Virus genome (UHGV): UHGV-0299912
Source: a virus
Reading direction: 5' to 3' (one strand)
DNA: 34,856 bases
The notes beneath the pieces are model-generated. The model had not been told where the DNA came from and did no database searches. It worked only from the letters and a program-made list of their open reading frames with translations. Below, in pieces: positions 952 through 29,016 of the stretch. A program made the translations under genes and the position numbers. Each line of letters starts with the position of its first letter. The stretch's first letter is position 1.

Positions 952-1877
952 AAATCCACCCCGTAAATCCAGTCAGTGTTTGTCAGGTCGAGTTTTGGTT
1001 TTCCGGCTGTCACGCCAGCCTGTTGCTTGTTACGGTTGATTTCGAGCTGGGTCCACTTGTCGCGGAGTTTAGCCGGACTCAGCACGTTACCGGACCAGAA
1101 GTTGTCCTGGCATGCCCAGCGGAACAGCACGCACATGTCGCGGTGGTTACGTCCGTCACGTTCACGCATCAGGCGGATATCATTAGCCCACCCTGCAAAA
1201 TTCGGTTTTCTGGCTGATGGCGCGATGGTCTTCACCATGTCAAACATCCACTCTGCGGCGGTCAGGTCTTCTGCTGTCCCCCACTTGCTGCCGCTCTGAA
1301 TTGCAGCATCTGGTTTCACCACAGGAAGATCGTTTTCTGGTTGGTCAGAGGATTCGCCAGAATTCTCTGACGAAAAAGGTTTTATATTGTCTTTTGTTAG
1401 TTTGTCTTTTGTGTTTACCTGATTCGGGTAAACGCCTTTACCTGATTTGGGTAAACTTTTCTTACCTGATTCAGGTAAATTTACCTCTTTCAGGTAAACT
1501 TTATTTTTCTTACCTGATTCGGGTAATGTTGCCCATTCACTGACCACATTATTAATACCGATATTCCGCCCGCTCTGAATCAAAATCCCACGCTTTACCA
1601 GAACACTTTTTGCAGCAGAACACTTGTGCGGCAATATCCCGGTCAATTCGGACAGTTGCTCGTTGCTCACCCAATCCAGTTTTTTATTAAAGCCATATGT
1701 TTTGCGCATGACAGCCAGGAAGACCAGAAGCTGGTACTGTGTTAATCCGGCCAGCATCACAGCTTCCAGCAACTCATTTGCAATGCGCGTATAACCATCA
1801 TCGAGATCTGCCACACGCGGCTCCTTTTGTGCCTCATCCGGCACTGGAAAATTGAATATCTCAGCAGTGTTTGCCAT
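948..1877 (-). CDS. O: Replication initiator protein O
   Basis: ORF-track frame 948..1967. I place the start at ATG 1877 (MANTAEIFNF...), which has a GGAAGGA Shine-Dalgarno 5 nt upstream and aligns with the lambda O N-terminus (MTNTAKILNF...). The C-terminal half (SSENSGESSDQPEND...WIYGVDL) matches lambda O; the N-terminal DNA-binding half is diverged. Contains the origin iterons. Confidence 0.88.
   Translation of the reverse strand: MANTAEIFNFPVPDEAQKEPRVADLDDGYTRIANELLEAVMLAGLTQYQLLVFLAVMRKTYGFNKKLDWVSNEQLSELTGILPHKCSAAKSVLVKRGILIQSGRNIGINNVVSEWATLPESGKKNKVYLKEVNLPESGKKSLPKSGKGVYPNQVNTKDKLTKDNIKPFSSENSGESSDQPENDLPVVKPDAAIQSGSKWGTAEDLTAAEWMFDMVKTIAPSARKPNFAGWANDIRLMRERDGRNHRDMCVLFRWACQDNFWSGNVLSPAKLRDKWTQLEINRNKQQAGVTAGKPKLDLTNTDWIYGVDL
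1415..1527. repeat. Replication origin iterons (5 copies of ~19-bp TTACCTGATTCGGGTAAAC-type repeat) inside O
   Basis: Direct repeats starting at 1415, 1438, 1462, 1481 and 1510, each an internal inverted repeat (TTACC...GGTAA), followed by an AT-rich stretch. Same position as ori-lambda within O. Confidence 0.8.
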
Positions 1878-1963
1878 AATTCCTTCCGCAATGAGTGCGT
1901 TACGATTTGCACCTGAAAGTCGGCTCTGTTCCCGCAGACCGGCTTTCGCCATTTCTGAACCTG

Positions 1964-2503
1964 TCATATTGCCCCCAGCATGGTGGTAACCATCGCCATT
2001 AATGGACCAGCCAGATCCGGGTCCACACGAAACATCGACACAATACCTTCACTCATTTCCTTCAGTTTCTGGTGGCGTGGTGCGTTGAGAATGACCGCCT
2101 GCTTTGCCTCACTGAGTTCCTTATCCATTTCAGCCAACCGAGCCATGAAGCTATCCTGCTCAACCAGGTGGCCGCGATATTCCAGCGGTAGTACCGCCAG
2201 AATTGCCGGGGTCAGTTCACGCACGTTATTTCGGTATTTTTCAGAATCGAATTTGTTATCGAGGAAGCGGAACAGCTTCTGGCGTGCACGGCTGACATCA
2301 TCAGGGAAATCGATGGTGCCGCCGCCCTGCTCCCGATACTCATTCACAATGAGTGCGGCAACAACATCCTGATTATCTGCAGCCGACCAGGCGCGAACGG
2401 CATCACGGATTTTTTCGTGGCCTGGCGCCTGTTTTGTTTGAGAATGATTTATCACCGCAGTCGGGCTAAATCCGCTAGTCTGTTGGTATGTAAGTGGTTG
2501 CAT
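1964..2503 (-). CDS. YdaT-like protein in the cII position (putative CII functional analogue)
   Basis: 179-aa ORF between cro and O. Motifs NEYREQGGG and PAILAVLPLEYRGHL resemble Rac prophage YdaT as I recall it (EEYLRQGGG, PAILAILPRELRHRL). Confidence 0.7.
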   Translation of the reverse strand: MQPLTYQQTSGFSPTAVINHSQTKQAPGHEKIRDAVRAWSAADNQDVVAALIVNEYREQGGGTIDFPDDVSRARQKLFRFLDNKFDSEKYRNNVRELTPAILAVLPLEYRGHLVEQDSFMARLAEMDKELSEAKQAVILNAPRHQKLKEMSEGIVSMFRVDPDLAGPLMAMVTTMLGAI

Positions 2504-2572
2504 AATTGACTCCTTTAGTTTGAATTGACTGTTAAGTTGATTGCTTATTGTTAAAGAGCGTGAAATGGAAAT

Positions 2573-2803
2573 TTAAGCTGCGTTCTTTTCGGTGTGTGGA
2601 AACAACTTCGGAAGATCCGGGCGAATCTGGTATGCCTTCACTACTCCACCAGTAGCCGTAACAATGCTGCCGACATGTTCAGGGGATACCTTTGCTTTGT
2701 TGTGAAGCCACTTATAGACGGCCTGCTGTGAAACTTCGCAAGCAGCGCCCAGTTTCTTTTGTGAACCAACGATATTGATCGCTGTTTTGATAGCTGGGTT
2801 CAT
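2573..2803 (-). CDS. cro: Cro-like HTH regulator (YdaS family)
   Basis: 76-aa ORF divergent from the repressor gene; GGAGG Shine-Dalgarno 5 nt upstream of the ATG; helix-turn-helix-like segment (QKKLGAACEVSQQAVYKW). Confidence 0.8.
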   Translation of the reverse strand: MNPAIKTAINIVGSQKKLGAACEVSQQAVYKWLHNKAKVSPEHVGSIVTATGGVVKAYQIRPDLPKLFPHTEKNAA

Positions 2804-2907
2804 AACAACCTCCGTGGTTAATTTGAATCAAGATTAAAACTATGGTTGTTTTTAGTCAACAACCATTTTCGTTTGATGGAATAAAACCTTGGTTGTACAT
2901 TTGGACT
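2804..2907. promoter_or_regulatory. Immunity-region operator/promoter interval (candidate PR, PRM and operator palindrome)
   Basis: 25-bp palindrome ATGGTTGTT-N7-AACAACCAT at 2842..2866. Candidate PR on the minus strand: -35 TTGACT (2859..2854), 17-bp spacer, -10 TAATCT (2836..2831). Candidate PRM on the plus strand: -35 TTGATG (2873..2878), 17-bp spacer, -10 TACATT (2896..2901), which would give a leaderless cI mRNA starting near ATG 2908. Confidence 0.5.
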
Positions 2908-3597
2908 ATGAAAACAACACTCTCAGAAAGACTTAAAGAAGCTAGATTAGCGCGAGGCCTTACACAAAAGGCGCTTGGGGATTTGGTCGGGGTTAGACAG
3001 GCTGCTATTCAGAAAATCGAAACAGGGAAAGCTAATCAAACAACTAAAATCGTGGAGATCGCGAACGCTTTGGGTGTGCGCGCAGAATGGTTATCTTCTG
3101 GCGTTGGAAATATGTCAGACAGTACAGTGCAACCAATACAATCAACTGTCAGCCATTCCAAATACTTCAAGATTGACGTTCTTGATATAGAAGTCAGTGC
3201 TGGGCCGGGAGTCATCAACCGTGAGTTTGTAGAAGTTCTACGCTCGGTTGAGTACTCGTTTGACGATGCTCGTCACATGTTCGATGGTAGGAAGGCGGAA
3301 AATATCCGCATCATTAACGTGCGTGGTGACAGCATGTCAGGAACGATCGAACCAGGTGATCTGCTGTTCGTTGATATCACAGTTAAATCTTTCGACGGTG
3401 ATGGTATCTATGCGTTTCTGTACGACGACACAGCCCATGTAAAGCGCCTGCAAATGATGAAGGATAAGCTGCTGGTCATCTCTGATAACAAAAGCTACTC
3501 ACCGTGGGACCCGATCGAGAAAGACGAGATGAACCGGGTGTTCATCTTCGGTAAGGTTATTGGGAGCATGCCGCAGACATATAGGAAGCATGGGTAG
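2908..3597 (+). CDS. cI: CI-type prophage repressor (N-terminal XRE HTH, C-terminal LexA/S24 autopeptidase domain)
   Basis: ORF-track frame 2842..3597. I prefer the internal ATG at 2908 (MKTTLSERLKEARL...) because 2842 lies inside the operator palindrome. HTH (LTQKALGDLVGVRQAAIQKIE) and S24-like C-terminal region (RGDSM...K) are present. Confidence 0.88.
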   Translation: MKTTLSERLKEARLARGLTQKALGDLVGVRQAAIQKIETGKANQTTKIVEIANALGVRAEWLSSGVGNMSDSTVQPIQSTVSHSKYFKIDVLDIEVSAGPGVINREFVEVLRSVEYSFDDARHMFDGRKAENIRIINVRGDSMSGTIEPGDLLFVDITVKSFDGDGIYAFLYDDTAHVKRLQMMKDKLLVISDNKSYSPWDPIEKDEMNRVFIFGKVIGSMPQTYRKHG

Positions 3598-3718
3598 TAC
3601 CAATTAAAAATTATCAACTGGGCATTGTGCTCATTCAGTAAAGAACTAATTCCTATCTTTGCTCTAGGTAGTAATATTAAGCCACCGCAATAATATCTTT
3701 ACCTAACGGCGTAAGAAT

Positions 3719-3745
3719 CCCGGTCACCGTGCCGGGTTTTCTTTT
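3719..3745 (+). terminator. Rho-independent terminator downstream of cI
   Basis: CCCGG-tcaccgtg-CCGGG hairpin followed by TTTTCTTTT. Confidence 0.55.
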
Positions 3746-3880
3746 GCCCTCCCCTCATCACACACACCGTTAAAAAAACCACCATAACCTCCCTTCAGTT
3801 ATCGCTATGCGATTCAAGTCACAAAATAAATCCATCCTAAATACAACCAGTTATATCTAAAAAAACCAATAAAACAACTT

Positions 3881-3908
3881 TTGTTGTTGACGACAAAACA
3901 ACTATAGT
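3881..3908 (+). promoter_or_regulatory. Candidate leftward early promoter (pL-like) with overlapping GTTGTT/AACAAC inverted repeat
   Basis: -35 TTGTTG (3881..3886), 16-bp spacer, -10 TATAGT (3903..3908). Inverted repeat GTTGTT (3883..3888) and AACAAC (3897..3902) shares its half-site with the cro-cI palindrome. Confidence 0.4.
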
Positions 3909-4197
3909 TTTAAATGAGTTCATCGCAACAACACAACGATACGGCAACCACCTGATTCACCGTTGCGATGACCGCTTAGATCCGCAGCTTGAATTTCAGC
4001 AGGCTCCGGGGAGTGCGAGGGGTGAAGCGGACGCGTGAACGTCGGTGTGACCAGCTGAAATCAACCCAACTCAACACCTCATACCTCAGTCGCTTCAACG
4101 AGGCGGCTTAGTTATGACAACCGGCGGCCATCCACCGCCTGAATACGCGCAGAAGTCTCTATATGTTCAGCAGCCCAGCTTACGGGCAGGAGTTTTT

Positions 4198-4404
4198 ATG
4201 GTTCATCAACATTACGGAACGCAGACCGTTAATCGAGGTGCGGTCATGCCAGGAATGCTGGTCAAACACAAAGATGGTACCTGGACTGCATCAGCTAATT
4301 TACGCGGACGGCTATATCTGCATCACGGCATCGAGCGCACTTATACCCGTGATTTGCTCGTGGAAGTTTTTCTCGACGGACGAGGCAACGGCCTGAATCA
4401 CTAA
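4198..4404 (+). CDS. Hypothetical small early protein (kil/cIII position upstream of gam)
   Basis: ORF-track frame 4114..4404. Internal ATG at 4198 has a strong AGGAG Shine-Dalgarno 5 nt upstream. No recognisable similarity and no Arg-rich N-like motif. Confidence 0.35.
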   Translation: MVHQHYGTQTVNRGAVMPGMLVKHKDGTWTASANLRGRLYLHHGIERTYTRDLLVEVFLDGRGNGLNH

Positions 4405-4479
4405 TCCCCTTTCCTGTTTTCCTAATCAGCCTGGCATTTCGCGGGCGATATTTTCACAGCCATTTTCAGGAGTTCAGCC

Positions 4480-4776
4480 ATGAACGCTTATTACATTCAG
4501 GATCGTCTTGAGGCTCAGAGCTGGGCGCGTCACTACCAGCAGATTGCCCGTGAAGAGAAAGAGGCAGAACTGGCAGACGACATGGAAAAAGGTCTTCCAC
4601 AGCACCTGTTTGAATCACTCTGCATCGATCATTTGCAACGCCACGGGGCCAGCAAAAAAGCCATTACCCGTGCGTTTGATGACGATGTTGAGTTTCAGGA
4701 GCGCATGGCAGAACACATCCGGTACATGGTTGAAACCATTGCTCACCACCAGGTTGATATTGATTCAGAGGTATAA
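4480..4776 (+). CDS. gam: Gam, host RecBCD inhibitor (short GamS form)
   Basis: 98-aa translation ([21 protein letters not shown]...[10 protein letters not shown]) recognised as lambda GamS; AGGAG Shine-Dalgarno upstream. Confidence 0.93.
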
Positions 4777-4781
4777 AACGA

Positions 4782-5567
4782 ATGAGTACAGCACTCGCAA
4801 CGCTGGCAGGGAAGCTGGCTGAACGTGTCGGCATGGATTCTGTCGACCCACAGGAACTGATCACCACTCTTCGCCAGACGGCATTTAAAGGTGATGCCAG
4901 CGATGCGCAGTTCATCGCATTGTTGATCGTCGCCAACCAGTACGGCCTTAATCCGTGGACGAAAGAAATTTACGCCTTCCCTGATAAGCAGAACGGCATC
5001 GTTCCGGTGGTGGGCGTTGATGGCTGGTCCCGCATCATCAATGAAAACCAGCAGTTTGATGGCATGGACTTTGAGCAGGACAATGAATCCTGTACATGCC
5101 GGATTTACCGCAAGGACCGTAATCATCCGATCTGCGTTACCGAATGGATGGATGAATGCCGCCGCGAACCATTCAAAACCCGCGAAGGCAGAGAAATCAC
5201 GGGGCCGTGGCAGTCGCATCCCAAACGGATGTTACGGCATAAAGCCATGATTCAGTGTGCCCGTCTCGCCTTCGGATTTGCTGGTATCTATGACAAGGAT
5301 GAAGCCGAGCGCATTGTCGAAAATACCGCATACACTGCAGAACGTCAGCCGGAACGCGACATCACTCCGGTTAACGATGAAACCATGCAGGAGATTAACA
5401 CTCTGCTGATTGCCCTGGACAAAACATGGGATGACGACTTATTGCCGCTCTGTTCCCAGATATTTCGCCGCGACATTCGCGCATCGTCAGAACTGACACA
5501 GGCCGAAGCAGTGAAAGCTCTTGGATTCCTGAAACAGAAAGCCACTGAGCAGAAGGTGGCAGCATGA
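4782..5567 (+). CDS. bet: Bet (Red-beta) single-strand annealing recombinase
   Basis: 261-aa translation recognised as lambda Bet ([20 protein letters not shown]...). Confidence 0.93.
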
Positions 5568-6244
5568 CACCGGACATTATCCTACAGCGTACCGGGATCG
5601 ACGTGAGAGCTGTCGAACAGGGGGATGATGCATGGCACAAATTACGGCTCGGCGTCATCACCGCTTCAGAAGTTCACAACGTGATAGCAAAGCCCCGCTC
5701 AGGAAAGAAGTGGCCTGACATGAAAATGTCCTACTTCCACACCCTGCTGGCTGAGGTTTGCACCGGTGTGGCTCCGGAAGTTAATGCTAAGGCGCTGGCG
5801 TGGGGAAAACAGTACGAGAACGACGCCAGAACCCTGTTTGAATTCACTTCCGGCGTGAATGTTACTGAATCCCCGATCATCTATCGCGACGAAAGTATGC
5901 GCACCGCCTGCTCTCCCGATGGTTTATGCAGTGACGGCAATGGCCTTGAGCTGAAATGCCCGTTTACCTCCCGGGATTTCATGAAGTTCCGGCTCGGTGG
6001 TTTCGAGGCCATAAAGTCGGCTTACATGGCCCAGGTGCAGTACAGCATGTGGGTAACGCGAAAATATGCCTGGTACTTTGCCAACTATGACCCACGAATG
6101 AAGCGTGAAGGCCTGCATTATGTCGTGGTTGAGCGGGATGAAAAGTACATGGCGAGTTTTGACGAGATGGTGCCGGAGTTCATCGAAAAAATGGACGAAG
6201 CACTGGCTGAAATTGGTTTTGTATTTGGAGAGCAATGGCGATGA
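5564..6244 (+). CDS. exo: Exo (Red-alpha) 5'-3' exonuclease
   Basis: 226-aa translation recognised as lambda Exo ([40 protein letters not shown]...); overlaps bet stop. Confidence 0.93.
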
Positions 6245-6423
6245 CCCATCCTCACGATAATATCCGGGTAGGCGCGATCACTTTCGTCTACTCCGTTACA
6301 AAGCGAGGCTGGGTATTTCACGGTCTTTCTGTTATCCGAAATCCGCTGAAAGCCCAGCGGCTGGCTGAGGAGATAAATAATAAACGGGGGGCGGTATGCA
6401 CAAAGCATCTCCTGTTGAGTTAA
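6235..6423 (+). CDS. Small exo-xis-region hypothetical protein (lambda orf60a-like position)
   Basis: 62-aa ORF overlapping the exo stop, same strand as the early-left operon. Confidence 0.55.
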
Positions 6424-6458
6424 GAACGAGTATTGATTTGGCACATAGCCTTGCTCAA

Positions 6459-6463
6459 ATTGG
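6459..6463. repeat. Target-site duplication ATTGG, left copy
   Basis: Identical 5-bp ATTGG immediately flanks both IS ends. Confidence 0.8.
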
Positions 6464-8471
<2,008 letters not shown>

Positions 8472-8554
8472 TTAGCCACATCCCTTTCACAAAAGCTGGA
8501 AATGATGGTGGCGAAAGCAGAAGCAGATGAGAGACCAGGTATGACAACCACTGA

Positions 8555-8836
8555 ATGCATTTTTCTGGCAGCGGGCTTCATATTCTGTGTGCTTATGCTT
8601 GCCGACATGGGGCTTGTTCAGTGACACCTCAGCAAGAAAACGCCCTTCGCAGCATTGCCCGTCAGGCTAATTCTGAAATCAAAAAAGTCAGACAGCAGTT
8701 TCCGGATAAAAACGTCAATGACATTTGCCGTAGCGTACTGAAGAAGCACCGCGAAACGGTAACGCTGAAGGGATTCACACCGACTCATTTAAGCCTGGCA
8801 ATCGGCATGTTAAACGGCGTCTTTAAGGAACGATGA
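8555..8836 (+). CDS. Hypothetical exo-xis-region protein
   Basis: 93-aa ORF. An alternative GTG start at 8621 overlaps the stop of the IS-split gene (VTPQQENALRSIARQ...), which would give ~71 aa. No recognisable similarity. Confidence 0.4.
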   Translation: MHFSGSGLHILCAYACRHGACSVTPQQENALRSIARQANSEIKKVRQQFPDKNVNDICRSVLKKHRETVTLKGFTPTHLSLAIGMLNGVFKER

Positions 8837-8934
8837 ACATGAAAAGCAAAATTATCAGGGAGCTACAGGCTCCTTTTTTATTGTTCGCATTCACCCTCAA
8901 GCGTATTAACCAACAGTTCAGGGATTAATGAAAG

Positions 8935-9156
8935 ATGGCAGACATCATTGATTCAGCATCAGAAATAGAAGAATTACAGCGCAACACAGCAATAAAAATG
9001 CGCCGCCTGAACTACCTGGCTGTATCTGCCACTCATTGTTGTGAGTGTGGCGATCCGATAGATGAACGAAGACGCCTGGCCGTTCAGGGTTGTCGGACTT
9101 GCGCCAGTTGCCAGCAAGATCTGGAGCTTATCCGCAAACAAAGGGGGATTAAGTGA
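8935..9156 (+). CDS. TraR/DksA-family C4 zinc-finger protein (lambda orf73-like)
   Basis: 73 aa with a CxxC-N17-CxxC motif (CCECGD...CRTCASC), typical of TraR-like RNA-polymerase secondary-channel binders found in the lambda exo-xis region. Confidence 0.75.
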   Translation: MADIIDSASEIEELQRNTAIKMRRLNYLAVSATHCCECGDPIDERRRLAVQGCRTCASCQQDLELIRKQRGIK

Positions 9157-9488
9157 TGGCTAACCTGCAACTTGCTGTTAAAAGTGAATACTTCGATGCC
9201 ATGATTCGCGGAGAGAAAACGGAAGAGTATCGCTTGTGTAATGACTACTGGAATAAGCGAATTATGTTCCGGGAATATGACCGCCTGATTATCACAAAGG
9301 GATATCCGAAGCGCGACGATTCCAGTCGCAGAATTGATGTTCCGTATGACGGATATGAAGTGAAGACAATCACACATCCGCACTTTGGCGATAAACCGGT
9401 AAAGGTGTTCGCTATAAAGGTGAATATCACCACTGAATATCAATCCGCACAACACAAGGTCAAGAATGTTCAGAGTGATTTACCCTAA
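9153..9488 (+). CDS. ASCH-domain protein
   Basis: 111 aa. Contains the GxKxxExR motif (IRGEKTEEYR) characteristic of ASCH/PUA-like domains. Overlaps the upstream stop (ATGA). Confidence 0.6.
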   Translation: MMANLQLAVKSEYFDAMIRGEKTEEYRLCNDYWNKRIMFREYDRLIITKGYPKRDDSSRRIDVPYDGYEVKTITHPHFGDKPVKVFAIKVNITTEYQSAQHKVKNVQSDLP

Positions 9489-9705
9489 CACCTGGTACGT
9501 CGACCACCACGGCACTCCCTGCAAAATCCTGCGTTCTACCCACAACAAAGTTCACTACATCCGAAAAGGCAGAACATGTATCGCCAGCATGTTCCGCTTT
9601 AATCATGACTTTGAACCTGTGAGTAAAGTGGAATCAGAGCGGATAGCCGAAGAGATCGATACAGCAGAACACATTAAGAAGTTACGTGCCATACGCAGGA
9701 AATAG
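9466..9705 (+). CDS. Hypothetical protein
   Basis: 79-aa ORF overlapping the previous gene in the same operon; basic C-terminus; no recognisable similarity. Confidence 0.45.
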   Translation: MFRVIYPNTWYVDHHGTPCKILRSTHNKVHYIRKGRTCIASMFRFNHDFEPVSKVESERIAEEIDTAEHIKKLRAIRRK

Positions 9706-9844
9706 AAAAATTGATAAATTCAATACTGCATTTCTCAGCATTAAATTTATCTCTATGACCAGTCAAGAGATGTACCTGCCATGAGCTTAATATCATGTCA
9801 GATATATCGGTCACAAACTCCCTCAGTAGCTAAGAGGAGGACAA

Positions 9845-10081
9845 ATGTCTCGACTAATCACTTTACAGGACTGGGCTAAAGAAGAATTTGGGGACTTAGC
9901 ACCAAGTGAGCGAGTTCTGAAAAAATACGCGCAAGGGAAAATGATGGCCCCACCCGCTATAAAAGTTGGTCGCTACTGGATGATTGACCGAAATTCCCGT
10001 TTTGTAGGAACGCTTGCAGAACCGCAACTCCCAATAAACGCAAACCCAAAACTCCAACGGATAATCGCTGATGGCTGCTAG
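9845..10081 (+). CDS. xis: Excisionase
   Basis: 78-aa ORF immediately upstream of and overlapping int; strong AAGAGGAGG Shine-Dalgarno; sequence recognised as an E. coli prophage excisionase type. Confidence 0.8.
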   Translation: MSRLITLQDWAKEEFGDLAPSERVLKKYAQGKMMAPPAIKVGRYWMIDRNSRFVGTLAEPQLPINANPKLQRIIADGC

Positions 10082-11213
10082 ACCCCGATCTCACAAAATC
10101 TCTATACCCAATTTATATTGCAAATTAGATAAGCGAACCGGAAAGGTATATTGGCAATACAAACATCCACTATCCGGTCGTTTTCATAGCTTAGGAACTG
10201 ATGAGAATGAAGCAAAACAAGTTGCTACTGAAGCAAATACCATTATTGCTGAACAACGTACCCGACAAATATTAAGCGTCAATGAGCGTCTGGAAAGAAT
10301 GAAAGGCAGGCGCTCAGACATTACGGTGACAGAATGGCTTGATAAATATATTTCTATCCAGGAGGACAGGCTGCAACATAATGAACTAAGACCCAACTCC
10401 TATCGGCAAAAAGGCAAACCCATTCGTCTTTTCCGTGAGCATTGTGGAATGCAACACCTCAAGGATATTACCGCACTTGATATTGCCGAAATGATTGATG
10501 CTGTAAAGGCTGAAGGTCATAACAGGATGGCGCAAGTCGTGAGAATGGTGTTAATCGACGTCTTCAAAGAAGCACAACACGCAGGACATGTTCCGCCAGG
10601 ATTTAACCCAGCGCAGGCAACAAAACAACCGCGAAATCGAGTAAACCGCCAAAGATTATCACTGCCCGAATGGCAGGCAATATTTGACAGCGTAAGCAGA
10701 CGGCAGCCCTATTTAAAATGCGGGATGCTACTTGCTCTTGTCACTGGACAACGTTTAGGCGATATCTGCAATTTGAAATTCTCTGATATCTGGGACGACA
10801 TGTTGCACATTACTCAGGAAAAAACCGGTTCAAAACTTGCTATTCCGCTTAACCTGAAATGCGATGCTCTGAATATTACCCTTCGTGAAGTTATATCTCA
10901 GTGCAGGGATGCTGTTGTTAGTAAATATCTGGTCCATTACCGTCACACAACCTCTCAAGCAAACAGAGGAGACCAGGTTTCTGCGAATACTCTGACAACG
11001 GCTTTTAAAAAGGCCAGGGAAAAATGTGGCATAAAATGGGAGCAAGGAACTGCGCCCACATTTCATGAGCAGCGATCTCTGTCAGAACGGTTATATCGGG
11101 AACAGGGTCTGGATACGCAAAAGTTGTTAGGCCATAAATCCAGAAAAATGACCGACCGATACAATGATGATCGTGGTAAAGACTGGATTATCGTAGATAT
11201 CAAAACAGCATAG
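10071..11213 (+). CDS. int: Tyrosine site-specific integrase
   Basis: 380-aa ORF with a tyrosine-recombinase C-terminal catalytic region (R...HxxR...Y context: LGHKSRKMTDRY). Adjacent to xis and the icd 3' fragment. Confidence 0.93.
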   Translation: MAARPRSHKISIPNLYCKLDKRTGKVYWQYKHPLSGRFHSLGTDENEAKQVATEANTIIAEQRTRQILSVNERLERMKGRRSDITVTEWLDKYISIQEDRLQHNELRPNSYRQKGKPIRLFREHCGMQHLKDITALDIAEMIDAVKAEGHNRMAQVVRMVLIDVFKEAQHAGHVPPGFNPAQATKQPRNRVNRQRLSLPEWQAIFDSVSRRQPYLKCGMLLALVTGQRLGDICNLKFSDIWDDMLHITQEKTGSKLAIPLNLKCDALNITLREVISQCRDAVVSKYLVHYRHTTSQANRGDQVSANTLTTAFKKAREKCGIKWEQGTAPTFHEQRSLSERLYREQGLDTQKLLGHKSRKMTDRYNDDRGKDWIIVDIKTA

Positions 11214-11223
11214 AAAACAGCCA

Positions 11224-11260
11224 GTTTTGGGGAAGGGTTTTGGGGAAAGTTTTGGGGAAG
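11224..11260. repeat. Three tandem 12-bp direct repeats GTTTTGGGGAAG / GTTTTGGGGAAA / GTTTTGGGGAAG
   Basis: Copies at 11224..11235, 11237..11248 and 11249..11260, 11 bp after the int stop and between int and the icd fragment. Candidate arm-type Int binding sites. Confidence 0.7.
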
Positions 11261-11280
11261 ATTTTACATCATCATAAAAC

Positions 11281-11303
11281 AACGGGCGTGTTATACGCCC
11301 GTT
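11281..11303. terminator. Bidirectional hairpin terminator between int and the icd fragment
   Basis: Perfect 9-bp stem AACGGGCGT / ACGCCCGTT with loop GTTAT. T-rich 3' flank on the plus strand (TTAAATATTT) and TTTT on the minus strand. Confidence 0.6.
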
Positions 11304-11326
11304 TAAATATTTAACACATGTAGTGA

Positions 11327-11494
11327 TTACATATTCTTGATGATCGCATCACCAAACTCTGAACATTTCAGCAGTTTAGCGCCTTCCATCAGACGTTCGA
11401 AGTCATAGGTTACGGTCTTGGCATTGATTGCGCCTTCCATACCTTTAACAATCAGGTCTGCGGCTTCGGTCCAACCCATGTGGCGCAGCAGCAT
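11327..11494 (-). pseudogene. icd: 3'-terminal fragment of isocitrate dehydrogenase gene icd (phage-borne att homology, e14 type)
   Basis: Minus-strand translation ...[55 protein letters not shown] is the Icd C-terminus as I recall it. Homology stops at ~11494, where the sitC sequence begins; there is no icd 5' region. Confidence 0.85.
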
Positions 11495-11496
11495 AT

Positions 11497-12180
11497 ATGC
11501 TGGGGCTTCCGTTTTCTCTGGGAGCCTTCTTTTCCGGCGGACTGGCTGCGGGCAGCATGCTGTTTCTTAACCAACGCACCCGCTTAAAAGAAGATGCCAT
11601 CATCGGCCTGATCTTCTCGTCCTTTTTTGGCCTGGGGCTGTTTATGGTGTCATTGAACCCGACATCTGTGAACATTCAGACCATCGTCCTGGGCAATATT
11701 CTGGCAATCGATCCGGCGGATATCCTGCAACTCACTATCATTGGCATTCTCTCGATCATCGTGCTTTTTTTCAAATGGAAAGATCTTATGGTGACCTTTT
11801 TCGACGAGAATCACGCCCGTGCTATTGGATTGCATCCGGGCAGATTAAAACTCCTCTTCTTCACCCTGCTGTCGGTTTCGACCGTTGCGGCGCTGCAAAC
11901 GGTTGGTGCCTTTCTGGTGATCTGTCTGGTGGTGACTCCCGGAGCAACAGCATGGTTGTTAACCGATCGTTTTCCCCGCCTGCTCATGATTGCTGTAACT
12001 ATTGGCAGTGTAACCAGTTTCCTCGGCGCGTGGGTCAGTTACTTTCTGGACGGCGCGACAGGTGGAATCATCGTGGTGGCGCAGACACTGCTGTTTCTTT
12101 TAGCATTTGTCTTTGCGCCCACCCATGGGCTTTTGGCAAATCGTCGGCGTGCGCATAAGGCGCTGGAGGATCGCTCATGA
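11497..12180 (+). pseudogene. sitC: 5'-truncated sitC (Mn/Fe ABC transporter permease)
   Basis: 227-aa frame matching the SitC/MntC/YfeC permease family from about residue 60 onward. The N-terminal ~60 codons, sitA and sitB are absent. Overlaps the sitD start (ATGA). Confidence 0.85.
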
Positions 12181-13034
12181 TGGCATTATTACTGGAGCCA
12201 CTGCAGTTCACCTTTATGAGTCACGCACTGCTGATTTCACTGGTAGTTTCCATACCCTGTGCGCTGCTGTCGGTCTTTCTGGTCCTGAAAGGCTGGGCAC
12301 TGATGGGTGACGCGATGAGTCATGCGGTTTTTCCTGGCATCGTGCTTGCCTGGATTCTGGGGTTACCTTTGGCTACAGGGGCATTCGTCGCCGGAGTATT
12401 CTGCGCGGTGGCGACGGGATACCTGAAAGACAACAGCCGAATCAAGCAAGATACAGTGATGGGGATTGTTTTTTCTGGCATGTTTGCCGCAGGTCTGATT
12501 TTGTATATTGCAGTCAAACCAGACGTACATCTTGACCATATTCTTTTCGGCGACATGCTCGGGATAACCATCGGCGATATAATCCAGACGGTGATTATTG
12601 CTGGGCTGGTTACACTTGTTATTAGCGTAAAATGGCGAGATTTTTTGCTGTTCAGCTTTGATTATCAACAGGCGCAGGTAAGCGGTTTGCATACGAGATG
12701 GCTGCATTATGGGCTGCTGTGCATGGTCTCTCTGACCATTGTGGCGACGCTGAAAGCGGTAGGTATTATTCTCTCCATTTCTCTGCTCATTGCGCCTGGC
12801 GCCATTGCGGTACTCCTGACACAACGCTTTTATATTGCGCTCCTACTGGCGACTGGCATATCGGTAATAGTGTCAATGATCGGTGTCTGGCTGTCCTTTT
12901 TTATCGACAGCGCACCAGCTCCGACGATTGTCGTCTTATTCGCGGTCGCGTTCATCATGACGTTTACCGTTACCAGCATCAACGCACGCACAAAGGGAAA
13001 CGCCCATACACAGGATCTGTTATCACCCAATTAG
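12177..13034 (+). CDS. sitD: SitD (Mn/Fe ABC transporter permease)
   Basis: 285-aa polytopic membrane protein of the ABC-3 permease family, immediately downstream of sitC. Confidence 0.88.
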   Translation: MMALLLEPLQFTFMSHALLISLVVSIPCALLSVFLVLKGWALMGDAMSHAVFPGIVLAWILGLPLATGAFVAGVFCAVATGYLKDNSRIKQDTVMGIVFSGMFAAGLILYIAVKPDVHLDHILFGDMLGITIGDIIQTVIIAGLVTLVISVKWRDFLLFSFDYQQAQVSGLHTRWLHYGLLCMVSLTIVATLKAVGIILSISLLIAPGAIAVLLTQRFYIALLLATGISVIVSMIGVWLSFFIDSAPAPTIVVLFAVAFIMTFTVTSINARTKGNAHTQDLLSPN

Positions 13035-13696
13035 CACAACATCCGAGGACATCATCGTCCGCCAGCCTACAGCAGTCCGGAAAGTCATGGAAGGTCGTTG
13101 GGAGGAGGTACGAATTCTATCATGCAAAAAATACGTAAAATCGATAATAGCTGGAAATAATTCAATACATGCACTCTCGAAAGTGCATCAGCCAACCGTG
13201 GCACGTTTTTGCATACAACGAGCCACGGTTCTCTTTACGATTTATAGCTGTATTGGTGAACTATGAGCAATTTTCGCGTTATATTCCAATCTTTAATCTC
13301 TTAACGGAACAAGTTGCATGCATGACTATATCAAGACAACTTATAACTACCAAAACATTTGCTTTGCAAGCAAAAACGGGGACCATTAACTCTAAGAAAA
13401 ATCCGATCTATTGTTAGGATTATTAAAGTTACTTAACAGTATTCCGAAATGAAAATACAAAGTAAGCTGATTGTCTTATTAAACATTATCATTGCATTTA
13501 TACTATTTGAGCTTTTAGATCAAAAATTCGGTTTGAGTACATTATTTTAAAGCAAGATAAATAATATCGGGCACTCTAGTTTTTATAATTAACAATTAAA
13601 CGCCCATAAAATGTTATTTACGTTTCTTCGCTATTGTAATATCTTAATATAGTGGTTTACGCCACTCTACTTTCATCATATTTTGTACGTTTATGT

Positions 13697-13725
13697 AATC
13701 GCCATGAAACTCTTTCATGGCGATT
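13697..13725. other. Perfect 13-bp stem, 3-nt loop hairpin (AATCGCCATGAAA-CTC-TTTCATGGCGATT) in the AT-rich spacer
   Basis: Seen directly; the plus-strand 3' flank is T-rich (TCTTATTCTT). Possible terminator or regulatory structure. Confidence 0.4.
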
Positions 13726-13814
13726 TCTTATTCTTAATCCAAGAACATAGTCCCTATCTATAGCAAAATTACTTTTGAACAAAAGAATAACGTATTTAGG
13801 TAATCATTACGAAT

Positions 13815-14396
13815 TTACCCTATAGGTGCTACTGGCCACTCAATATCCGGTACTACTGATGTATCAACACGGTTCAGCAACACCCGATACTTTTTCCAGG
13901 CTTCCAGCAACAAGGTTTCTTCCTCCGTTGCGATCTCCAGATCTACAGCATCCTGAAGCGGCGCTATATGCTCACTGGCTACCTGCATCAGGCTGTTTTT
14001 TGTTTCTTCCGCCTCCCGGATCCGGAACAGTTTTTCTGCTTCCGTATCCTTCACCCAGGCTGTACCGTTCCACTTCTGAAACTCCCCTTCCGGGGATAAC
14101 CAGGTGACATTTTCCGGTAATGAGCCGAGTTCAGAAATAAATAACGCGTCGCCGGAAGCCACGTCATAGACCGTTTTTCCCCGATGGTCTTCAACGAGAT
14201 GCCACGATGCCTCATCACTGTTGAAAACAGCCACAAAGCCAGCCGGAATATCTGGCGGTGCAATATCGGTACTGTTTGCAGGCAGACCTGTATGAGGCGG
14301 AATATATGCGTCACCTTCACCAATAAATTCATTAGTTCCGGCCAGCAGGTTATAAATTTTTATGGTCCGTGCTTGTTCACTCATTCTGAATGCCAT
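13815..14396 (-). CDS. tfa: Tail fiber assembly protein
   Basis: 193-aa ORF directly downstream of stf, with TAATG stop/start overlap; recognised as the lambda/Rac Tfa family. Confidence 0.85.
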
Positions 14397-17347
14397 TATG
14401 CGAGCCTCACAATATAGTTAAATGCGATGTTTTTGACGGTGTTTTCCGCGTTACCAGCAGCGTTAACGGTGATGGTGTGTCCATGTGAACCAATCGCAAC
14501 AGAGTGCGTATGAGCACCAATACCGACAGTATGCGCGTGTGCACCCGCAGATGCTGCTGTGCCGGACAGTGAGTGTGTATGGTTTCCTTCTGAAGATGAT
14601 TTACCTACCCATTGGGAGGTGCCACTGGTTAATGAGCCACTGATACCAACCTGATTAGTCCCGCTAACTTGAGTACTCCCTGCCGGAAACATTCCAGTAG
14701 GTTGACTCCCGCTATTCGTTCTGGGCCCAGTCTGACTATGTTGGTGGGCCCCAGCTGAACTTGTAGAGCCGCTCAGACTGTGCGTATGCGCCCCGGTGTT
14801 ATTCGTGGATTTAGTGCCGTAATCAAACGACGATGTGGTTTTCGTCCCCAAATCCGTACTGGATGCGCTGGCGCTGTGGGTGTGCGATTTTATGCCGTCC
14901 TGTTCCTGAGACAATACGGCCCGACCACTGGCAGGTTTGCCCTTAATCGTCCAGCCACGCATATCAGGGATCACGCCTGACGGATAAGCGGCTGCAAGTT
15001 TCGGGTATGCAGATTTGTCAAAAGTCTGCCCCTGCATCAGGGCATAACCAGACGGAACGGTATCTGATGGCCACGGGATTGGTGCACCGACTGGATAAAA
15101 CTCTGCAGGAGGATGAGCCGAGGTGTAAAGCTGCGCCCACGGCGACCAGTTTGCGTCGATCGTATCCCGTCGTGAACGAATAAATGCCGGAGCATGAGCA
15201 CCGCTTGTACCACTCCAGCCGATGAGTAACTCACCTTCGCCAACGGCTGTCATCCCTTTCAGGTGAATGATATTTCCATACGCTGTTGGATATCCGTTGT
15301 TATACACCTCGTATAACTCAAGACCTGTTGCCCCCTGCGTATTGTCTGTCAGCGCGGTTACCCGACCTTTTGAAGCCAGATTAACTGATGATACTGCTGT
15401 TCCACCTGACGGTAATGCCCCGATCTCTGATGCCGTTGGCTTATTTCTGGAGTTATAGTCCCTTCGCCAGCCAGGTGAATAATCTGTTCCGTGATTAATA
15501 TAGGTAAACTGGGCGTTAGTTGTTCCGCCACCAGTGGAGGTGGTCGGTGTGGTAATGCGGATCGTCATCGCTGACTTTATCCCCATTACTTCAATGACGG
15601 CTCCTGCGAGATGAATATTACCGCAGCCAGTATCAGTAATGATTTTATTATTGCCATAAGACCAGGAACCCTTGCACATCCAGTATGGATGGTTAAATGC
15701 TCCCTGAGAATCCAGCCACTCGATAAACTGTGCAGTCGTCCAGTTTCCTGTTGTTGTGCTTACTGACCCACCGAAGGCACGGCAGGCACCAATATTTTTC
15801 GTAAAGGTGTCTTTGCCAGGGATATCCGCACCGTTCTGATCTTTCTGCAGACGTTTCTCAGCATTGTCATTGGCTGCTTTTACTGCCTTTGGCGTTGCCG
15901 CCAGCGTTTCAGACGTGCTGTTGGTCGCACTGCTGAGCTGTACTATCCCCTTTTTCGTCGTGCTCGCATCCTCAAGCGCCACGGCGGATGCAATATCCTC
16001 TGCCCGTTTTGCTGCTGTCTCGGCGCGCGTTGCCGCGGATTCCGCCGTACTTTTGCTCTGAGCTGCCGCCGTCGCACTACCAGCTGCCTCTGTCGCCTTC
16101 GTGGATGCCGTCGTGGCGCTGCCTTTCGCTGCTGATGCCTGTCTGCTCGCCTCATCTTTTGAAGCAGACGCAGATGATGCCGATGACGCCGCCGAACTGG
16201 CGGACGATGCAGCTGCCATTTTTGAGGATTCTGCACTGGTTTCCGAGGCTTTCGCGTTCGTTTCGGATGTCTTCGCTGCGGATGCAGACCTCGCTGCTGC
16301 GCTGGCCTGTTCAGCGGCTTCGCCAGCCTTCGTTGTGGCTGTTGAAGCGGACAATGCAGCGCTTTCTGCCGATTTTCCGGCGGCAGTGGCTCTGGCTGAG
16401 GCCTGCCCGGCACTTGTTGACGCGGCACTGGCAGATGATGCAGCCGCTGTTTTTGAGCCTGCCGCAGCTGAGGCACTCTGTCCCGCTGCCGTTTCAGAAG
16501 ACCTGGCGTTCGTCTCGGACGTTTTTGCCGCCTTCGCGGAATTTGCTGCCGCCGTTGCCGAGGAAGCGGAACTACTGGCGCTCGAGGATGCGTTCGTTTC
16601 TGATGATTTCGCTGCCTCTTTTGAGGCCGCCGCATCCCGGGCTGAGGTGGCAGCTTCTGACGCTTTCGTGGTCGCGGTGGATGCAGAAGTGGCTGCTGAT
16701 TGTTGTGACGCTGCGGCATTCGTTTCTGACGTTTTCGCCGCACCGGCACTGGTAGCCGCCGCGCTTTTTGAGGACTCTGCAGCGGCAGCACTTTTTGATG
16801 CTTCAGTGGCCTTTGCTGATGCCGTTCCTGCGCTGGAAGACGCTGACTGAGCCGACGACACGGCCTGTCCGGCTGACGTGCTGGCTGCGCGTGCTGAGTC
16901 TGCAGCATCAGTCGCATGGGTTGCCGCCTCACGGGCTGATGTGCTGGCATCGCCGGCTGACTTCTTCGCGGCTGCCGTGTTCTGTGCCACTGCGGACGCG
17001 TTACGCGCCACCTCTTCCACCATCACTTCAAAACGGCGCAGTGCCTCCGGACGGGCATCATCCTCCGTCATGGCACCGAGAAAATCATTCAGCGTACCGG
17101 GTTGAGAATCTTCATACACGGTGATAGTCCCGGCATGTGACGGCGGGAATCCCTCCACCAACAGAATAACGCTGTACTGACCATACTCAACGTCCATACT
17201 GTAACGCCCGGCTTCATCCGGATTTTCTGAGGCCAGCGTGTTCACCACCACCGTGGTACTGTTACGTTTTGCTTTCAGCTGGATTGTGCAGTTCTGTACC
17301 GGTTTTCCTGTGCCGTCTTTCAGTACACCAGAAATCTTTACTGCCAT
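14396..17347 (-). CDS. stf: Side tail fiber protein (StfR-like)
   Basis: ORF-track frame 14396..17353. Start placed at ATG 17347 ([18 protein letters not shown]...). Long Ala/Ser/Thr-rich repeat region, and a C-terminal region with HTHS/GAHAH repeats ending [11 protein letters not shown], as I recall for Rac StfR. Confidence 0.88.
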
Positions 17348-17353
17348 ATTCAC

Positions 17354-17385
17354 CCCACAAAAAAGCCCGCCTGAACCGGCGGGCT
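17354..17385 (-). terminator. Rho-independent terminator downstream of lom
   Basis: Minus strand reads AGCCCGCC-GGTTCA-GGCGGGCT followed by TTTTTGTGGG. Confidence 0.7.
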
Positions 17386-17411
17386 GTCATAACACTGTGT
17401 TACCTGGCTAA

Positions 17412-18011
17412 TCAGAATTTATAACCGACACCCACGATGAAACCGTCAGTGCGCCAGTCGCCACTGCCGGAGCCTTCATAAGCAATATCAATGGCCACGG
17501 ATTCGGTCGGGTTAAACTGCACGCCAGCTCCCCACGCCAGAGACGTGTTGCTGTGGCGACCGTCATCACTTCCGGTCAGCACATCGTGCGTTTTCCCCTT
17601 GTTGTCAGTTACGCGGAGATAATCCCCGGAGAAAGTCGACACACGGCTGTAAGCCACACCCGCCATCGCATACGCGCTGAACCATTCATTCACGCGCACA
17701 GACGGCCCCGCCATTACGCTGAACCAGCGGTTACGAACGGAATCTTCATGCCAGCGGGTATCGCTGTAACGGGTAAGCTGGCGATTCTTGTCTCCTGCAT
17801 AGCTGAAAGACGTCACCATCCCCAGTGTGTCCGTAAACTCATAACGGTATTTCACGTTAATCCCGTTCAGATCATCGCTGCCGGGAACGTTCGTCGAGAC
17901 ATGAAGATACCCCGCGCTCAGCGTGGACTGATGTTCAGACGCCCATGCAGGCGCACCGGATACGGCCAGACAAATGGCTGCGGACAAAATGGCGGCATAA
18001 AGTTTACGCAT
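17412..18011 (-). CDS. lom: Lom outer-membrane protein (Ail/Lom family)
   Basis: ORF-track frame 17412..18050. Start placed at ATG 18011 ([24 protein letters not shown], a signal peptide) with a GAGAGG Shine-Dalgarno; beta-barrel protein ending in F. Confidence 0.88.
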
Positions 18012-18034
18012 AATTACCTCTCGCTTTTCTGCAA

Positions 18035-18060
18035 TAAAAAAAGGCGTCATTTCTGACGCC
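18035..18060 (-). terminator. Rho-independent terminator downstream of J
   Basis: Minus strand reads GGCGTCA-GAAA-TGACGCC followed by TTTTTTTATTG. Confidence 0.7.
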
Positions 18061-18078
18061 CGTTATGGGTTATAAAAT

Positions 18079-21480
<3,402 letters not shown>

Positions 21481-21537
21481 TCACGCTCCAGAAACGACAA
21501 AACCGCCCGCAGGCGGTTTCACATAAAACATTTTGCA

Positions 21538-22209
21538 TCAGCGACCAATCACCACAACCTGACCACCATCCCCTTCGTCTGCCGTGCTGATCTCCTGAGA
21601 AACCACACGTGACCCCACGCGCATTTCCCCGTACAGAACAGGCAGAACATTACCCTGGGCAACCATGTTATCCAGTGACGAGAAATACGTGTTCTGTTTG
21701 CCGTTATCTGTACTGGCTGCCGTGGGCGTCCTGGCTTTCGGTGCCAGCATCTGAGCCACACCGCCGAGCACCATACTGGCACCGAGAGAAAACAGAATGC
21801 CGGTCATACCACCGGCACCAATGGCAGCCCCCCATGCTGCAAGGGTGGCTCCGGCGGTAAAGAATGATCCGGCAATGGCGGCTGCTCCCAGGACAATCTG
21901 GAATACACCACCTGACTTGGCCCCGGCGACTCTGGGAACAATATGAATCACAGCGCCGTCAGGTAGAGCCTCATGTAACTGCGCCGTTAATCCGGACGTG
22001 CTGACATCCTGTCCGGCAATACGCACCTGATACCAGCCGTCGCTCAGTTTCTGACGAAACGCAGGGAGCTGTGTGGCCAGCGCCCGGATGGCTTCGGCCC
22101 CCGTTTTCACACGAAGGTCGATGCGGCGGCCAAATCGTTGCAAATCCCCGTAAAGGCAGATGCGTGCCATGCCCGGTGACGCCAGAGGGAGTGTGTGCGT
22201 CGCTGCCAT
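21538..22209 (-). CDS. I: Tail assembly protein I
   Basis: 223-aa ORF recognised as lambda I (MAATHTLPLASPGMARICLYGDLQRF...VVVIGR). Confidence 0.9.
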   Translation of the reverse strand: MAATHTLPLASPGMARICLYGDLQRFGRRIDLRVKTGAEAIRALATQLPAFRQKLSDGWYQVRIAGQDVSTSGLTAQLHEALPDGAVIHIVPRVAGAKSGGVFQIVLGAAAIAGSFFTAGATLAAWGAAIGAGGMTGILFSLGASMVLGGVAQMLAPKARTPTAASTDNGKQNTYFSSLDNMVAQGNVLPVLYGEMRVGSRVVSQEISTADEGDGGQVVVIGR

Positions 22210-22850
22210 TTGTCGGTATACCTCTCTCGTTTGCTCAGTTGTTCAGGAATATGGTGCAGCAGCTCGCCGTCACCACAGTAAATGGCGGCATGATTCGGCA
22301 CCGATGAACCAAAACAGCACAGCAGCACATCGCCCGGCTGCGCCGCTGACAACGGCACCTGATACAGCCCTGTGGCCTCCAGATTATCCAGATAGAGATT
22401 CTGACCGTTACGCCACCAGTCATCCTCGCGGTGAAAATCCGGCATCTCAATCCCCGCCAGATGGTAAGCATCCCGGAACAGCGTGTAACAGTCCGTCACC
22501 CCGTGCTCAAAGCGCCGCCCGGTAAGATGCGGCACACAGCGGAACTTGTGAATCGCCCCCCGGCAGACCAGCCACCACGGCAAATCACTCTGCACCTGCA
22601 GCCGCCGGTCAGCCTCACTCAGCCAGGGCAGACCACCGGGATGACTGTGGACCAGCGCCACAATCTCACCCTGCATTTCTGCCTGCAGCCAGTCCTCCGG
22701 AGCCATCCGGAAATAATCCTCCGGCTCACCGGAAATATTCACGCAGGGAAAATATCTTTCCCCCTCCAGCGTTCTCACCACGAAGCCGCACGACTCCGCT
22801 GGCGCACATCGCCGGGCGTGCGCCAGAATCGCTGATTCTGTCTCTGTCAT
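22107..22850 (-). CDS. K: Tail assembly protein K (JAB/MPN plus NlpC/P60-like)
   Basis: ORF-track frame 22107..22925. Start placed at ATG 22850 (MTETESAILAHARRC...), 4 nt after the L stop. HSHPGG JAMM-like motif. An internal ATG at 22706 would give the 199-aa form I recall being annotated for lambda. Confidence 0.8.
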   Translation of the reverse strand: MTETESAILAHARRCAPAESCGFVVRTLEGERYFPCVNISGEPEDYFRMAPEDWLQAEMQGEIVALVHSHPGGLPWLSEADRRLQVQSDLPWWLVCRGAIHKFRCVPHLTGRRFEHGVTDCYTLFRDAYHLAGIEMPDFHREDDWWRNGQNLYLDNLEATGLYQVPLSAAQPGDVLLCCFGSSVPNHAAIYCGDGELLHHIPEQLSKRERYTDKWQRRTHSLWRHRAWHASAFTGICNDLAAASTFV

Positions 22851-22854
22851 GGGA

Positions 22855-27271: not shown

Positions 27272-27286
27272 CGCTGACTCTCCGGA

Positions 27287-28027: not shown

Positions 28028-28034
28028 AGCGTCC

Positions 28035-29005: not shown

Positions 29006-29016
29006 ACATCCCCCTT

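Follow-up and report, generated by a model that had tools for sequence, protein, structure and literature searches.

Deletions with one endpoint in the phage attachment site (attP) are reportedly promoted by the integrase (Int) of phage lambda, both in the b2 type and in the Parkinson-Huskey and Davis-Parkinson deletion series of 1971. Such deletions are said to remove b-region DNA from one endpoint in the attP core, taking one attP arm and leaving the phage int+ but att defective, and their proposed origin is Int recombination of attP with a secondary site within the phage. Here we describe a joint in UHGV-0299912, a lambdoid phage genome of 34.9 kb in reverse virion order, as judged by gene order and Pfam matches (the whole stretch of 34,856 nucleotides is called the window below). 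At the joint, a 3' fragment of icd (icd') lying next to the integrase gene int is fused to a 5'-truncated sitC (sitC'), from the sitABCD operon for a Mn/Fe transporter. By analogy, this joint appears to be the natural phage 21 counterpart of the classical lambda att-anchored b-region deletions, a kind of event that is already known. It shares with them the loss of b-region DNA, the endpoint in the attP core, the loss of one arm and, as predicted here, an int+ but att-defective phage, and an origin through a secondary site within the phage can be proposed for it in the same way. Unlike the lambda deletions, it involves a phage 21-type integrase that targets icd, and 165 bp and a terminator separate the core from the int-proximal arm because this attP embeds an icd surrogate. 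The window has also lost a virulence-associated transporter operon, and its deletion comes from natural sequence data and was not laboratory selected.

Two other kinds of lambda joint are comparable. Off-site integration of lambda has been described at >300 sites (PMC5605937). Like the joint in the window, secondary-site recombination of this type uses a weak core-type site with a nonidentical overlap, and either parental overlap can appear in the product. A deletion results in the window, where the partner site is on the phage itself, in cis, unlike the ectopic lysogen that arises in lambda; joints in the toxin gene cbtA (see below) are the ectopic-lysogen counterpart for the same integrase family. 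Specialized transducing phages such as lambda gal and lambda bio, which arise by aberrant excision, also have an abnormal joint near att and have lost phage DNA. In contrast with these, the window gained no host DNA, and its joint is in the att core, not at a random flanking position. No host chromosome was found beside the joint; the sit genes occupy the same position in virion-derived genomes.

The normal arrangement is that of phage 21, which was sequenced from purified virions (PMC9119081). In phage 21 and ~26 relatives the order is int, three copies of TTTTGGGGAA, a terminator, a 165-bp icd pseudogene, the core, an AT-rich stretch, a fourth TTTTGGGGAA, small open reading frames (ORFs), sitA, sitB, sitC, sitD and the tail fiber genes, with 0.9 to 1.9 kb of b-region DNA between the attP arm and sitABCD. 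The window resembles phage 21 (OL657228, M61865) and its Jouyvirus relatives in the three arm-type sites, which are annotated as attP subsites P1P2P3 in OL657228, in the terminator and icd pseudogene, and in the placement of sit genes between attP and the tail fibers. Unlike phage 21, it has a different tail fiber module beyond 13051 and an insertion of the IS21 family. Its gene order (early genes, xis, int, attP, sit, tfa, side tail fiber, J, tail, head) matches the phage 21 virion layout, and by all these features the parent of the window appears to be a phage 21-like (Jouyvirus-type) temperate coliphage.

The breakpoints were observed directly by alignment to the parental sequences. Window positions 9314 to 11497 correspond to 1 to 2184 of the phage 21 locus (L002), with 98.4% nucleotide identity over these 2,184 bp, while window positions 11491 to 13051 correspond to L002 6001 to 7561. 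The two alignments run on one strand, which makes the sites direct repeats whose recombination deletes the DNA in between. Compared with phage 21, 3,823 bp are missing; compared with the closest intact sit arms (L001 and that of L024, from E. coli SCU-111), the loss is 2,822 bp. From 11491 onward the window is 100% identical to many E. coli sitC genes, and the right flank as a whole is 98.7 to 100% identical to sitCD, so chance resemblance was excluded for both sides. An earlier, sequence-only reading of this stretch had described a fusion without a spacer between the last ~55 codons of icd, with their terminator hairpin, and the interior of sitC, and had noted the absence of sitA, sitB and ~60 N-terminal codons of sitC. 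All of this was borne out: the 55 residues of the icd' ORF match the final 49 positions of the Iso_dh profile, the sitC' ORF starts with Met59 and its ABC-3 profile match with position 52, the window has neither sitA nor sitB, and 7 bp (11491 to 11497, GCATATA) are common to both parental sequences. Its coordinates needed small corrections. The limit of icd at ~11494 holds for the ORF, but alignment to the 3' end of the full-length icd of E. coli strain 2A (attL) stops at 11490 and is followed by a mismatch and then CAT; the ATG of icd' (11492 to 11494) falls inside the shared 7 bp. Likewise, sitC homology starts at 11491, in codon 57, and not at 11497.

The missing DNA, as observed, comprises the far attP arm with its arm-type site, the sit promoter region, sitA, sitB and codons 1 to 56 of sitC, together with three or four small ORFs when phage 21 is the reference. 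The fourth TTTTGGGGAA site, which lies 113 bp beyond the core in phage 21 (L002 2297 to 2306), is conserved in relatives, where a P-arm reading frame reads ...YFGE..., and is absent from the window. One endpoint is in the att core and overlap (11484 to 11497), and one attP arm is gone. What remains of the integration module is a heterobivalent tyrosine integrase close to phage 21 Int, with an arm-binding N-terminal domain and a catalytic domain, the adjoining xis, and, separating the core from the int-proximal arm sites, the surrogate icd 3' end and terminator. Arm-type sites are present on only one side of the core, since all DNA beyond it is missing and sitC follows from 11491.

The origin of both fused pieces could be settled. 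The icd piece, which lies within attP, is the icd surrogate carried next to int by phage 21-type phages, not a chromosomal remnant or a piece of host icd, and the phage 21 record annotates the matching segment as an icd pseudogene. Capture of flanking sitCD by imprecise excision, one of the two alternatives in the earlier reading, was rejected: phage 21 and ~26 other sequenced relatives have sitABCD in their virion DNA, with the tail fiber genes on one side and attP on the other, and it was therefore already phage DNA. The operon is native cargo of phage 21-type phages and not flanking host DNA; in lysogens it is found at the attR end, beside the displaced host icd 3' remnant. The window does not hold the four full-length genes of a sitABCD operon, which encode a binding protein (sitA), an ATPase (sitB) and two permeases (sitC and sitD). 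Salmonella phage SPF_0923 was set aside because it is called as a prophage, has host flanks and retains sitABCD intact.

A second type of junction was observed in independent metagenome assemblies. An exact look-up of the 227-aa SitC' protein found the order int-icd'-sitC'-sitD in three of them, L004 and L005 (ENA, MEGAHIT) and L011 (Logan), each of which aligns to window 9462 to 13051 across the joint without a gap. The only junction-specific differences from the window are at 11484, 11487, 11489 and 11490. The 7-bp block from 11484 to 11490 has the attP version in the window (CGCAGCA) and the sitC version in L004, L005 and L011 (TGCGGGG), so the exchange points are 7 bp apart and either parental overlap occurs in otherwise colinear products. 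The crossover in L004 (ATGG/TGCG) has no microhomology. The window and L004 differ at 5 positions in the last 75 bp of icd' and by 1.2% in sitCD but at only 1 of the 1,143 bp of int. Because the flanks diverge while int is nearly identical, two independent events at the same site appear more likely than a single one. Several other candidates were rejected. The 55-aa icd' ORF is not junction specific as a probe, since wild-type attR variants with CAGCATATA yield the same ORF; wild-type attR carrying GCAGCAGCATATAAAAAC was seen in L019, L020 and L022. Four apparent further cases (L008, L009, L012 and L013) start 1 to 2 nt before the sitC' ATG and are artifacts of the exact-protein look-up, being partial genes at contig ends that happen to translate to the same 227 aa. 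Other matches were unrelated, namely, a different truncation in a plasmid context (L006), a nonsense mutant (L007) and a sequence with a run of N (L010).

On either side of the 7-bp block lie ATATGG and GCATAT, imperfect inverted repeats of each other, as in the core of a tyrosine recombinase site. In strain 2A, attL reads CATGTGG CGCAGCA TCATCTC, and attP and attB (icd) agree no further than 11490, so normal crossovers occur at or to the left of that position. The corresponding putative pseudo-att site in sitC, at codons 50 to 58, reads CGGGTGT TGCGGGG GCATATA and is in direct orientation relative to the attP core. The pseudo-att overlap coincides with a five-G run (GCGGGGGCA) at codons 54 to 57 of intact sitC (e.g., L001 ~7995 to 8006). 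As a separate observation, many database proteins are SitC fragments of 81 to 82 aa (P0004, P0011, P0030, P0036 and P0087) with a frame shift at this run; they could reflect sequencing errors or real slippage.

A further site was found in two E. coli isolates (L015 and L017) with phage 21-type prophages whose int-icd' adjoins not icd but the toxin gene cbtA, within CP4-44-like islands (L015 ~9990 to 10010; the unoccupied site is at ~1840 to 1860 in L047 and L048). The unoccupied site reads CGTGTGA TTGAGCA GCATATT and the occupied joint reads CATATGG CGCAGCA GCATATT. The cbtA site shares AGCAGCATAT with attP, and the half-site GCATAT is common to the cbtA and sitC pseudo-sites. These joints show cbtA to be a natural secondary attachment site and the phage 21 integrase family to use pseudo-att sites. 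Both pseudo-sites fit a putative core with half-site C at 11477 to 11483, the overlap at 11484 to 11490 and half-site C' at 11491 to 11497. Four other loci (L014, L016, L018 and L023) have a different element directly next to this icd core position (GCGCAGCAGCAT/TTTTAACAACC, at ~10001, or ~7147 in L023). A second, 54-aa icd fragment lies ~6 kb away, with e14-like invertase and tail fiber cassettes in between and pertussis-like toxin subunit genes beyond it, which looks like several elements stacked at the icd site.

The joint at 11484 to 11497 is probably a site-specific recombination scar, left when Int recombined attP with the sitC pseudo-att on the same molecule. From the anatomy of the junction we infer Int as the catalyst, the intramolecular route and the resulting phenotype. 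Of the two origins offered by the sequence-only reading, a deletion made by Int from an endpoint at the att core gains support here: the breakpoint is in the putative core, the far arm is gone, and the second junction type differs by exactly the 7-bp block. Tyrosine integrases such as lambda Int cut and exchange one strand at each edge of the overlap, and where the two overlaps differ, the product is a heteroduplex from which either parental overlap can emerge. In the window lineage, Int would have paired the attP core with the weak look-alike site in sitC codons 50 to 58, acting like attB in cis, and would have exchanged strands at both edges of the 7-bp overlap. Because the two sites have the same orientation on the phage, the reaction would delete the DNA between them, and the intervening 2.8 kb (3.8 kb relative to phage 21) would be released as a circle and lost. 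The overlaps differ at 4 of 7 positions, so that replication or repair of the heteroduplex could settle on either junction, giving the attP overlap in one case (the window) and the sitC overlap in the other (L004, L005 and L011). Since int, xis and the int-proximal arm were kept and the far arm was lost, the product is predicted to be integration defective on its own, like lambda b2.

Several observations weigh against this interpretation. The sitC site matches the 21-bp core at just 13 positions (3 of 7 in C, 3 of 7 in the overlap and 7 of 7 in C'), and by a plain Hamming count ~25 to 40 sites per 13 to 35 kb match it equally well, so that such a match is common by chance and the site is not statistically special. 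The overlap position of phage 21 Int was deduced here by comparing sequences and does not come from the literature; the GenBank records M61865 and AF017626 carry no core annotation. The joint of the window, taken alone, could equally be explained by a deletion at 7 bp of microhomology, and the IS21-family insertion suggests that the window resided in a bacterial chromosome at some time. The joint with the sitC overlap is present in at least two to three samples that are 99.9% identical to each other, so something propagates it; this persistence would be awkward for an att-defective phage unless lytic growth, or a place in tandem with a resident prophage, sustains it. Finally, the window-type joint was not replicated in IMG/VR, JGI metagenomes, GTDB representatives, phage and plasmid collections or look-ups of junction-spanning ORFs. 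A 26-mer and a 35-mer of the window type and a 26-mer of the L004 type had no exact match in IMG/VR, JGI metagenomes or GTDB representative genomes. BLAST searches returned no record spanning both sides of the joint among 5,426 complete E. coli genomes, 50,697 phage records and 72,556 plasmids, and exact look-ups of the junction-spanning 76-aa and 50-aa ORFs and of the 985-aa tail fiber found none on record. Absence from all 5,426 genomes is what would be expected if the product cannot lysogenize normally. Furthermore, the sitC site is the sole core-like site with a perfect C' half-site that lies in a dispensable region in the correct orientation. As few core-like, correctly oriented sites are available there, recurrence would be expected in cis. 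That the sitC pseudo-att is a recurrent Int-catalyzed breakpoint for shedding the sit cargo together with one att arm, with the window and L004 as independent events, has somewhat less than an even chance of being right.

Other routes to the same joint were considered. A phage 21-like phage could have been inserted by Int, intermolecularly, into the sitC pseudo-att of a resident sit prophage at icd, leaving one prophage inside another or a tandem array, which would make the window a prophage-prophage junction from which nothing was deleted, with sitA, sitB and the 5' part of sitC ~45 kb away. The joint (int, icd', overlap, 3' part of sitC, sitD, tfa, side tail fiber, J) would be identical, and resident sit prophages at icd are very common (the window tfa protein occurs in 537 collection blocks, in the same context in 10 of the 10 places shown). 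Secondary-site insertion by this integrase family occurs in isolates, at cbtA, and both the IS21-family element and the persistence of the L004-type joint across samples fit chromosomal residence. Such an insertion, however, predicts a reciprocal joint consisting of CCCGGGTGT, TGCGGGG or CGCAGCA, and GCATATAAAAA, followed by the far arm, and the corresponding 120-aa fusion of SitC residues 1 to 58 to the far-arm frame was not found in a collection of 5.8 billion proteins with ENA and Logan gene calls. Stable lysogens should also have been sampled among the complete E. coli genomes, none of which has this joint or the reciprocal one. For an insertion in trans, a chromosome would offer thousands of 13/21 matches as good as the sitC site, which makes two independent insertions at that site unlikely, whereas in cis only a few dispensable b-region sites can yield viable phage. 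Both halves of the window match one prophage type, and the short-read contigs run through the joint with no branch to intact sitC. These observations make the intermolecular route unlikely. The same joint with the same two overlap variants could be produced by Int and Xis in an aberrant excision in which attL recombined with the sitC pseudo-att instead of attR and the deleted circle was then packaged. This could happen at each induction of a common lysogen type, which would explain recurrence, and the outcome is indistinguishable by sequence alone from that of a deletion between attP and sitC. In lambda, an attP that bears arms recombines with an armless, attB-like partner. Neither partner in the aberrant excision has the far attP arm, and a two-armed attP acting on a simple core-type site is the more canonical pair and the one that follows the lambda analogy; we regard the excision route as decidedly unlikely.

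A route independent of Int would be replication slippage or microhomology joining of the two GCATATA copies, which lie 2.8 kb from each other, with the shorter genome then selected for packaging. The window joint does fall within a 7-bp identity, as is typical of slippage deletions. From the window and, for 12.7 kb outside it, strain 2A, the genome size was estimated at ~47.6 kb, or ~50.4 kb without the deletion, with the largest relative listed at 50.1 kb. The 1.95-kb insertion sequence (IS) would raise the genome to ~50.4 kb and so favor a compensating deletion, which is speculative; a packaging advantage is possible in the same speculative sense. But a dispensable region of 5 kb holds an estimated several hundred 7-bp repeat pairs, so use of the pair at the att core would be a coincidence of ~1%. 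Slippage also fails to predict the L004-type crossover, which has no microhomology and is shifted by the exact 7-bp block at both parental sites, and it is very improbable as an explanation. A chimeric assembly, in which a contig containing icd was wrongly joined to one containing sitC, might be suspected because the window-type joint has no exact replicate in the collections searched and icd' is a repeat in lysogens. The two sides, however, share 7 bp, far less than any assembler k-mer or overlap length; equivalent joints occur in three other assemblies from two pipelines; and the position of the joint is biologically meaningful, with a flanking gene order that is that of virion DNA. A chimera is scarcely credible. 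An Int-made deletion between attP and sitC in cis thus remains the favored explanation, and the features on which it draws are collected in Table 1.

Table 1. Features of the window and comparison of junction sequences
Feature	Position	Strand	Evidence or sequence
Replication genes P and O	250-1967		Followed by immunity and recombination genes
xis (excisionase), 78 aa	9845-10081	+	Pfam Exc; aligns to phage 21 xis region
int, phage 21-type tyrosine integrase, 380 aa	10071-11213	+	Pfam Arm-DNA-bind_1 and Phage_integrase
Three tandem arm-type Int sites of int-proximal attP arm, kept	11225-11259	+	TTTTGGGGAA x3
Intrinsic terminator of icd surrogate	11281-11303	-	Terminator-like hairpin and T tail; annotated terminator of phage 21 in same place
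icd', phage-borne last 55 codons of icd, within attP	11327-11494	-	Pfam Iso_dh positions 300-348 of 348
Putative core half-site C	11477-11483		CATGTGG (phage 21, CATATGG); imperfect inverted repeat of 11491-11497 around 7-bp spacer
Putative 7-bp overlap (strand-exchange) region	11484-11490		CGCAGCA
Putative core half-site C'	11491-11497		GCATATA; identical in attP variants and sitC
sitC', truncated permease ORF, SitC residues 59-285, 227 aa	11497-12180	+	DNA homology from 11491, codon 57 of 285
sitD, intact, 285 aa	12177-13034	+	Homology and profile match
tfa	13815-14396	-	
Side tail fiber gene	14396-17353	-	
Junction: attP (phage 21)			C, CATATGG; block, CGCAGCA; C' and beyond, GTATATAAAA
Junction: attP/attR variants (L019, L020, L022)			C, CATATGG; block, CGCAGCA; C' and beyond, GCATATAAAA
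Junction: sitC, intact			C, CGGGTGT; block, TGCGGGG; C' and beyond, GCATATATGCTG
Junction: window			C, CATGTGG; block, CGCAGCA; C' and beyond, GCATATATGCTG
Junction: L004, L005, L011			C, CATATGG; block, TGCGGGG; C' and beyond, GCATATATGCTG

Nearly the whole window, on both sides of the joint, matches a single type of prophage, the one integrated at icd in E. coli strain 2A. Identity to this prophage is 99.95% over window positions 1 to 6468, 99.9% over 8417 to 11494, 99.5% over 19010 to 34108 and 100% over 34050 to 34856. In strain 2A the prophage is integrated, with int adjoining a full-length icd, and the window is a circular permutation of the same genome. Window int, by contrast, connects via the att region with the sit and tail fiber end, which is the attP (vegetative) arrangement, as in virion-derived phage 21. 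After the joint the order is sitD, tfa, side tail fiber, J, tail, head and portal, and the tfa and side tail fiber context places the joint in the b region between the tail fiber genes and int, as in phage 21 in virion order. Strain 2A was rejected as the intact parent for the sit side because the sit end is unreadable there, its icd prophage being recombined, across the record origin, with a Qin-like one. The tail end of the icd prophage runs into a Qin-like region with ydfJ and ydfK (L045 and L046, the start and end of record NZ_CP146939.1), which points to rearrangement of the chromosome between two lambdoid prophages or else to an assembly problem. The sit side was compared with the sit-tfa-side tail fiber-J arm of the icd prophage in SCU-111 (L024), to which window 11491 to 24396 is 99.0% identical.

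Other observations concern the ends of the window and its IS element. Position 1 is the base directly after a 3.5-kb inverse-autotransporter cargo gene in strain 2A (L044 13543/13544), and on this left side the contig may have broken at a cargo region that varies; the right end, at 34856, falls within the large terminase gene. The ~1.95-kb IS21-family element (6464 to 8417) lies in the early region between exo and xis and contains istA (6550 to 7572) and istB (7569 to 8351) between TGTCA...TGACA ends. It is flanked by a 5-bp duplication, ATTGG (6459 to 6463 and 8418 to 8422). Neither L004 nor the strain 2A prophage, which is otherwise 99.9% identical, has this element. A 340-aa ORF was dropped as a source tracer because it is the IS21-family transposase, which occurs everywhere.

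The comparison accounts to the base for an odd gene fusion that should not be taken for a captured host gene, a damaged chromosomal icd or a misassembly. The Sit Mn/Fe transporter of the window is predicted to be nonfunctional, as what remains of it is SitC without residues 1 to 58, plus SitD; the 227-aa SitC and 55-aa Icd ORFs of such contigs are remnants, not genes. The two junction types offer a sequence-only hypothesis for where phage 21 Int exchanges strands (11484 to 11490) and which half-site it prefers. If the sitC pseudo-att is indeed a recurrent Int-catalyzed breakpoint, the window and the L004 lineage would show the two alternative overlap outcomes and, together with the cbtA lysogens, would map the phage 21 Int overlap, which reads TGCTGCG in the direction of icd, and the preferred half-site GCATAT from environmental sequence. 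Cargo adjacent to attP would then be gained and lost through the integrase at look-alike sites, beyond random illegitimate recombination, and the joint suggests that a virulence-associated Mn/Fe transporter of common E. coli prophages may be removable by the phage's own integrase.

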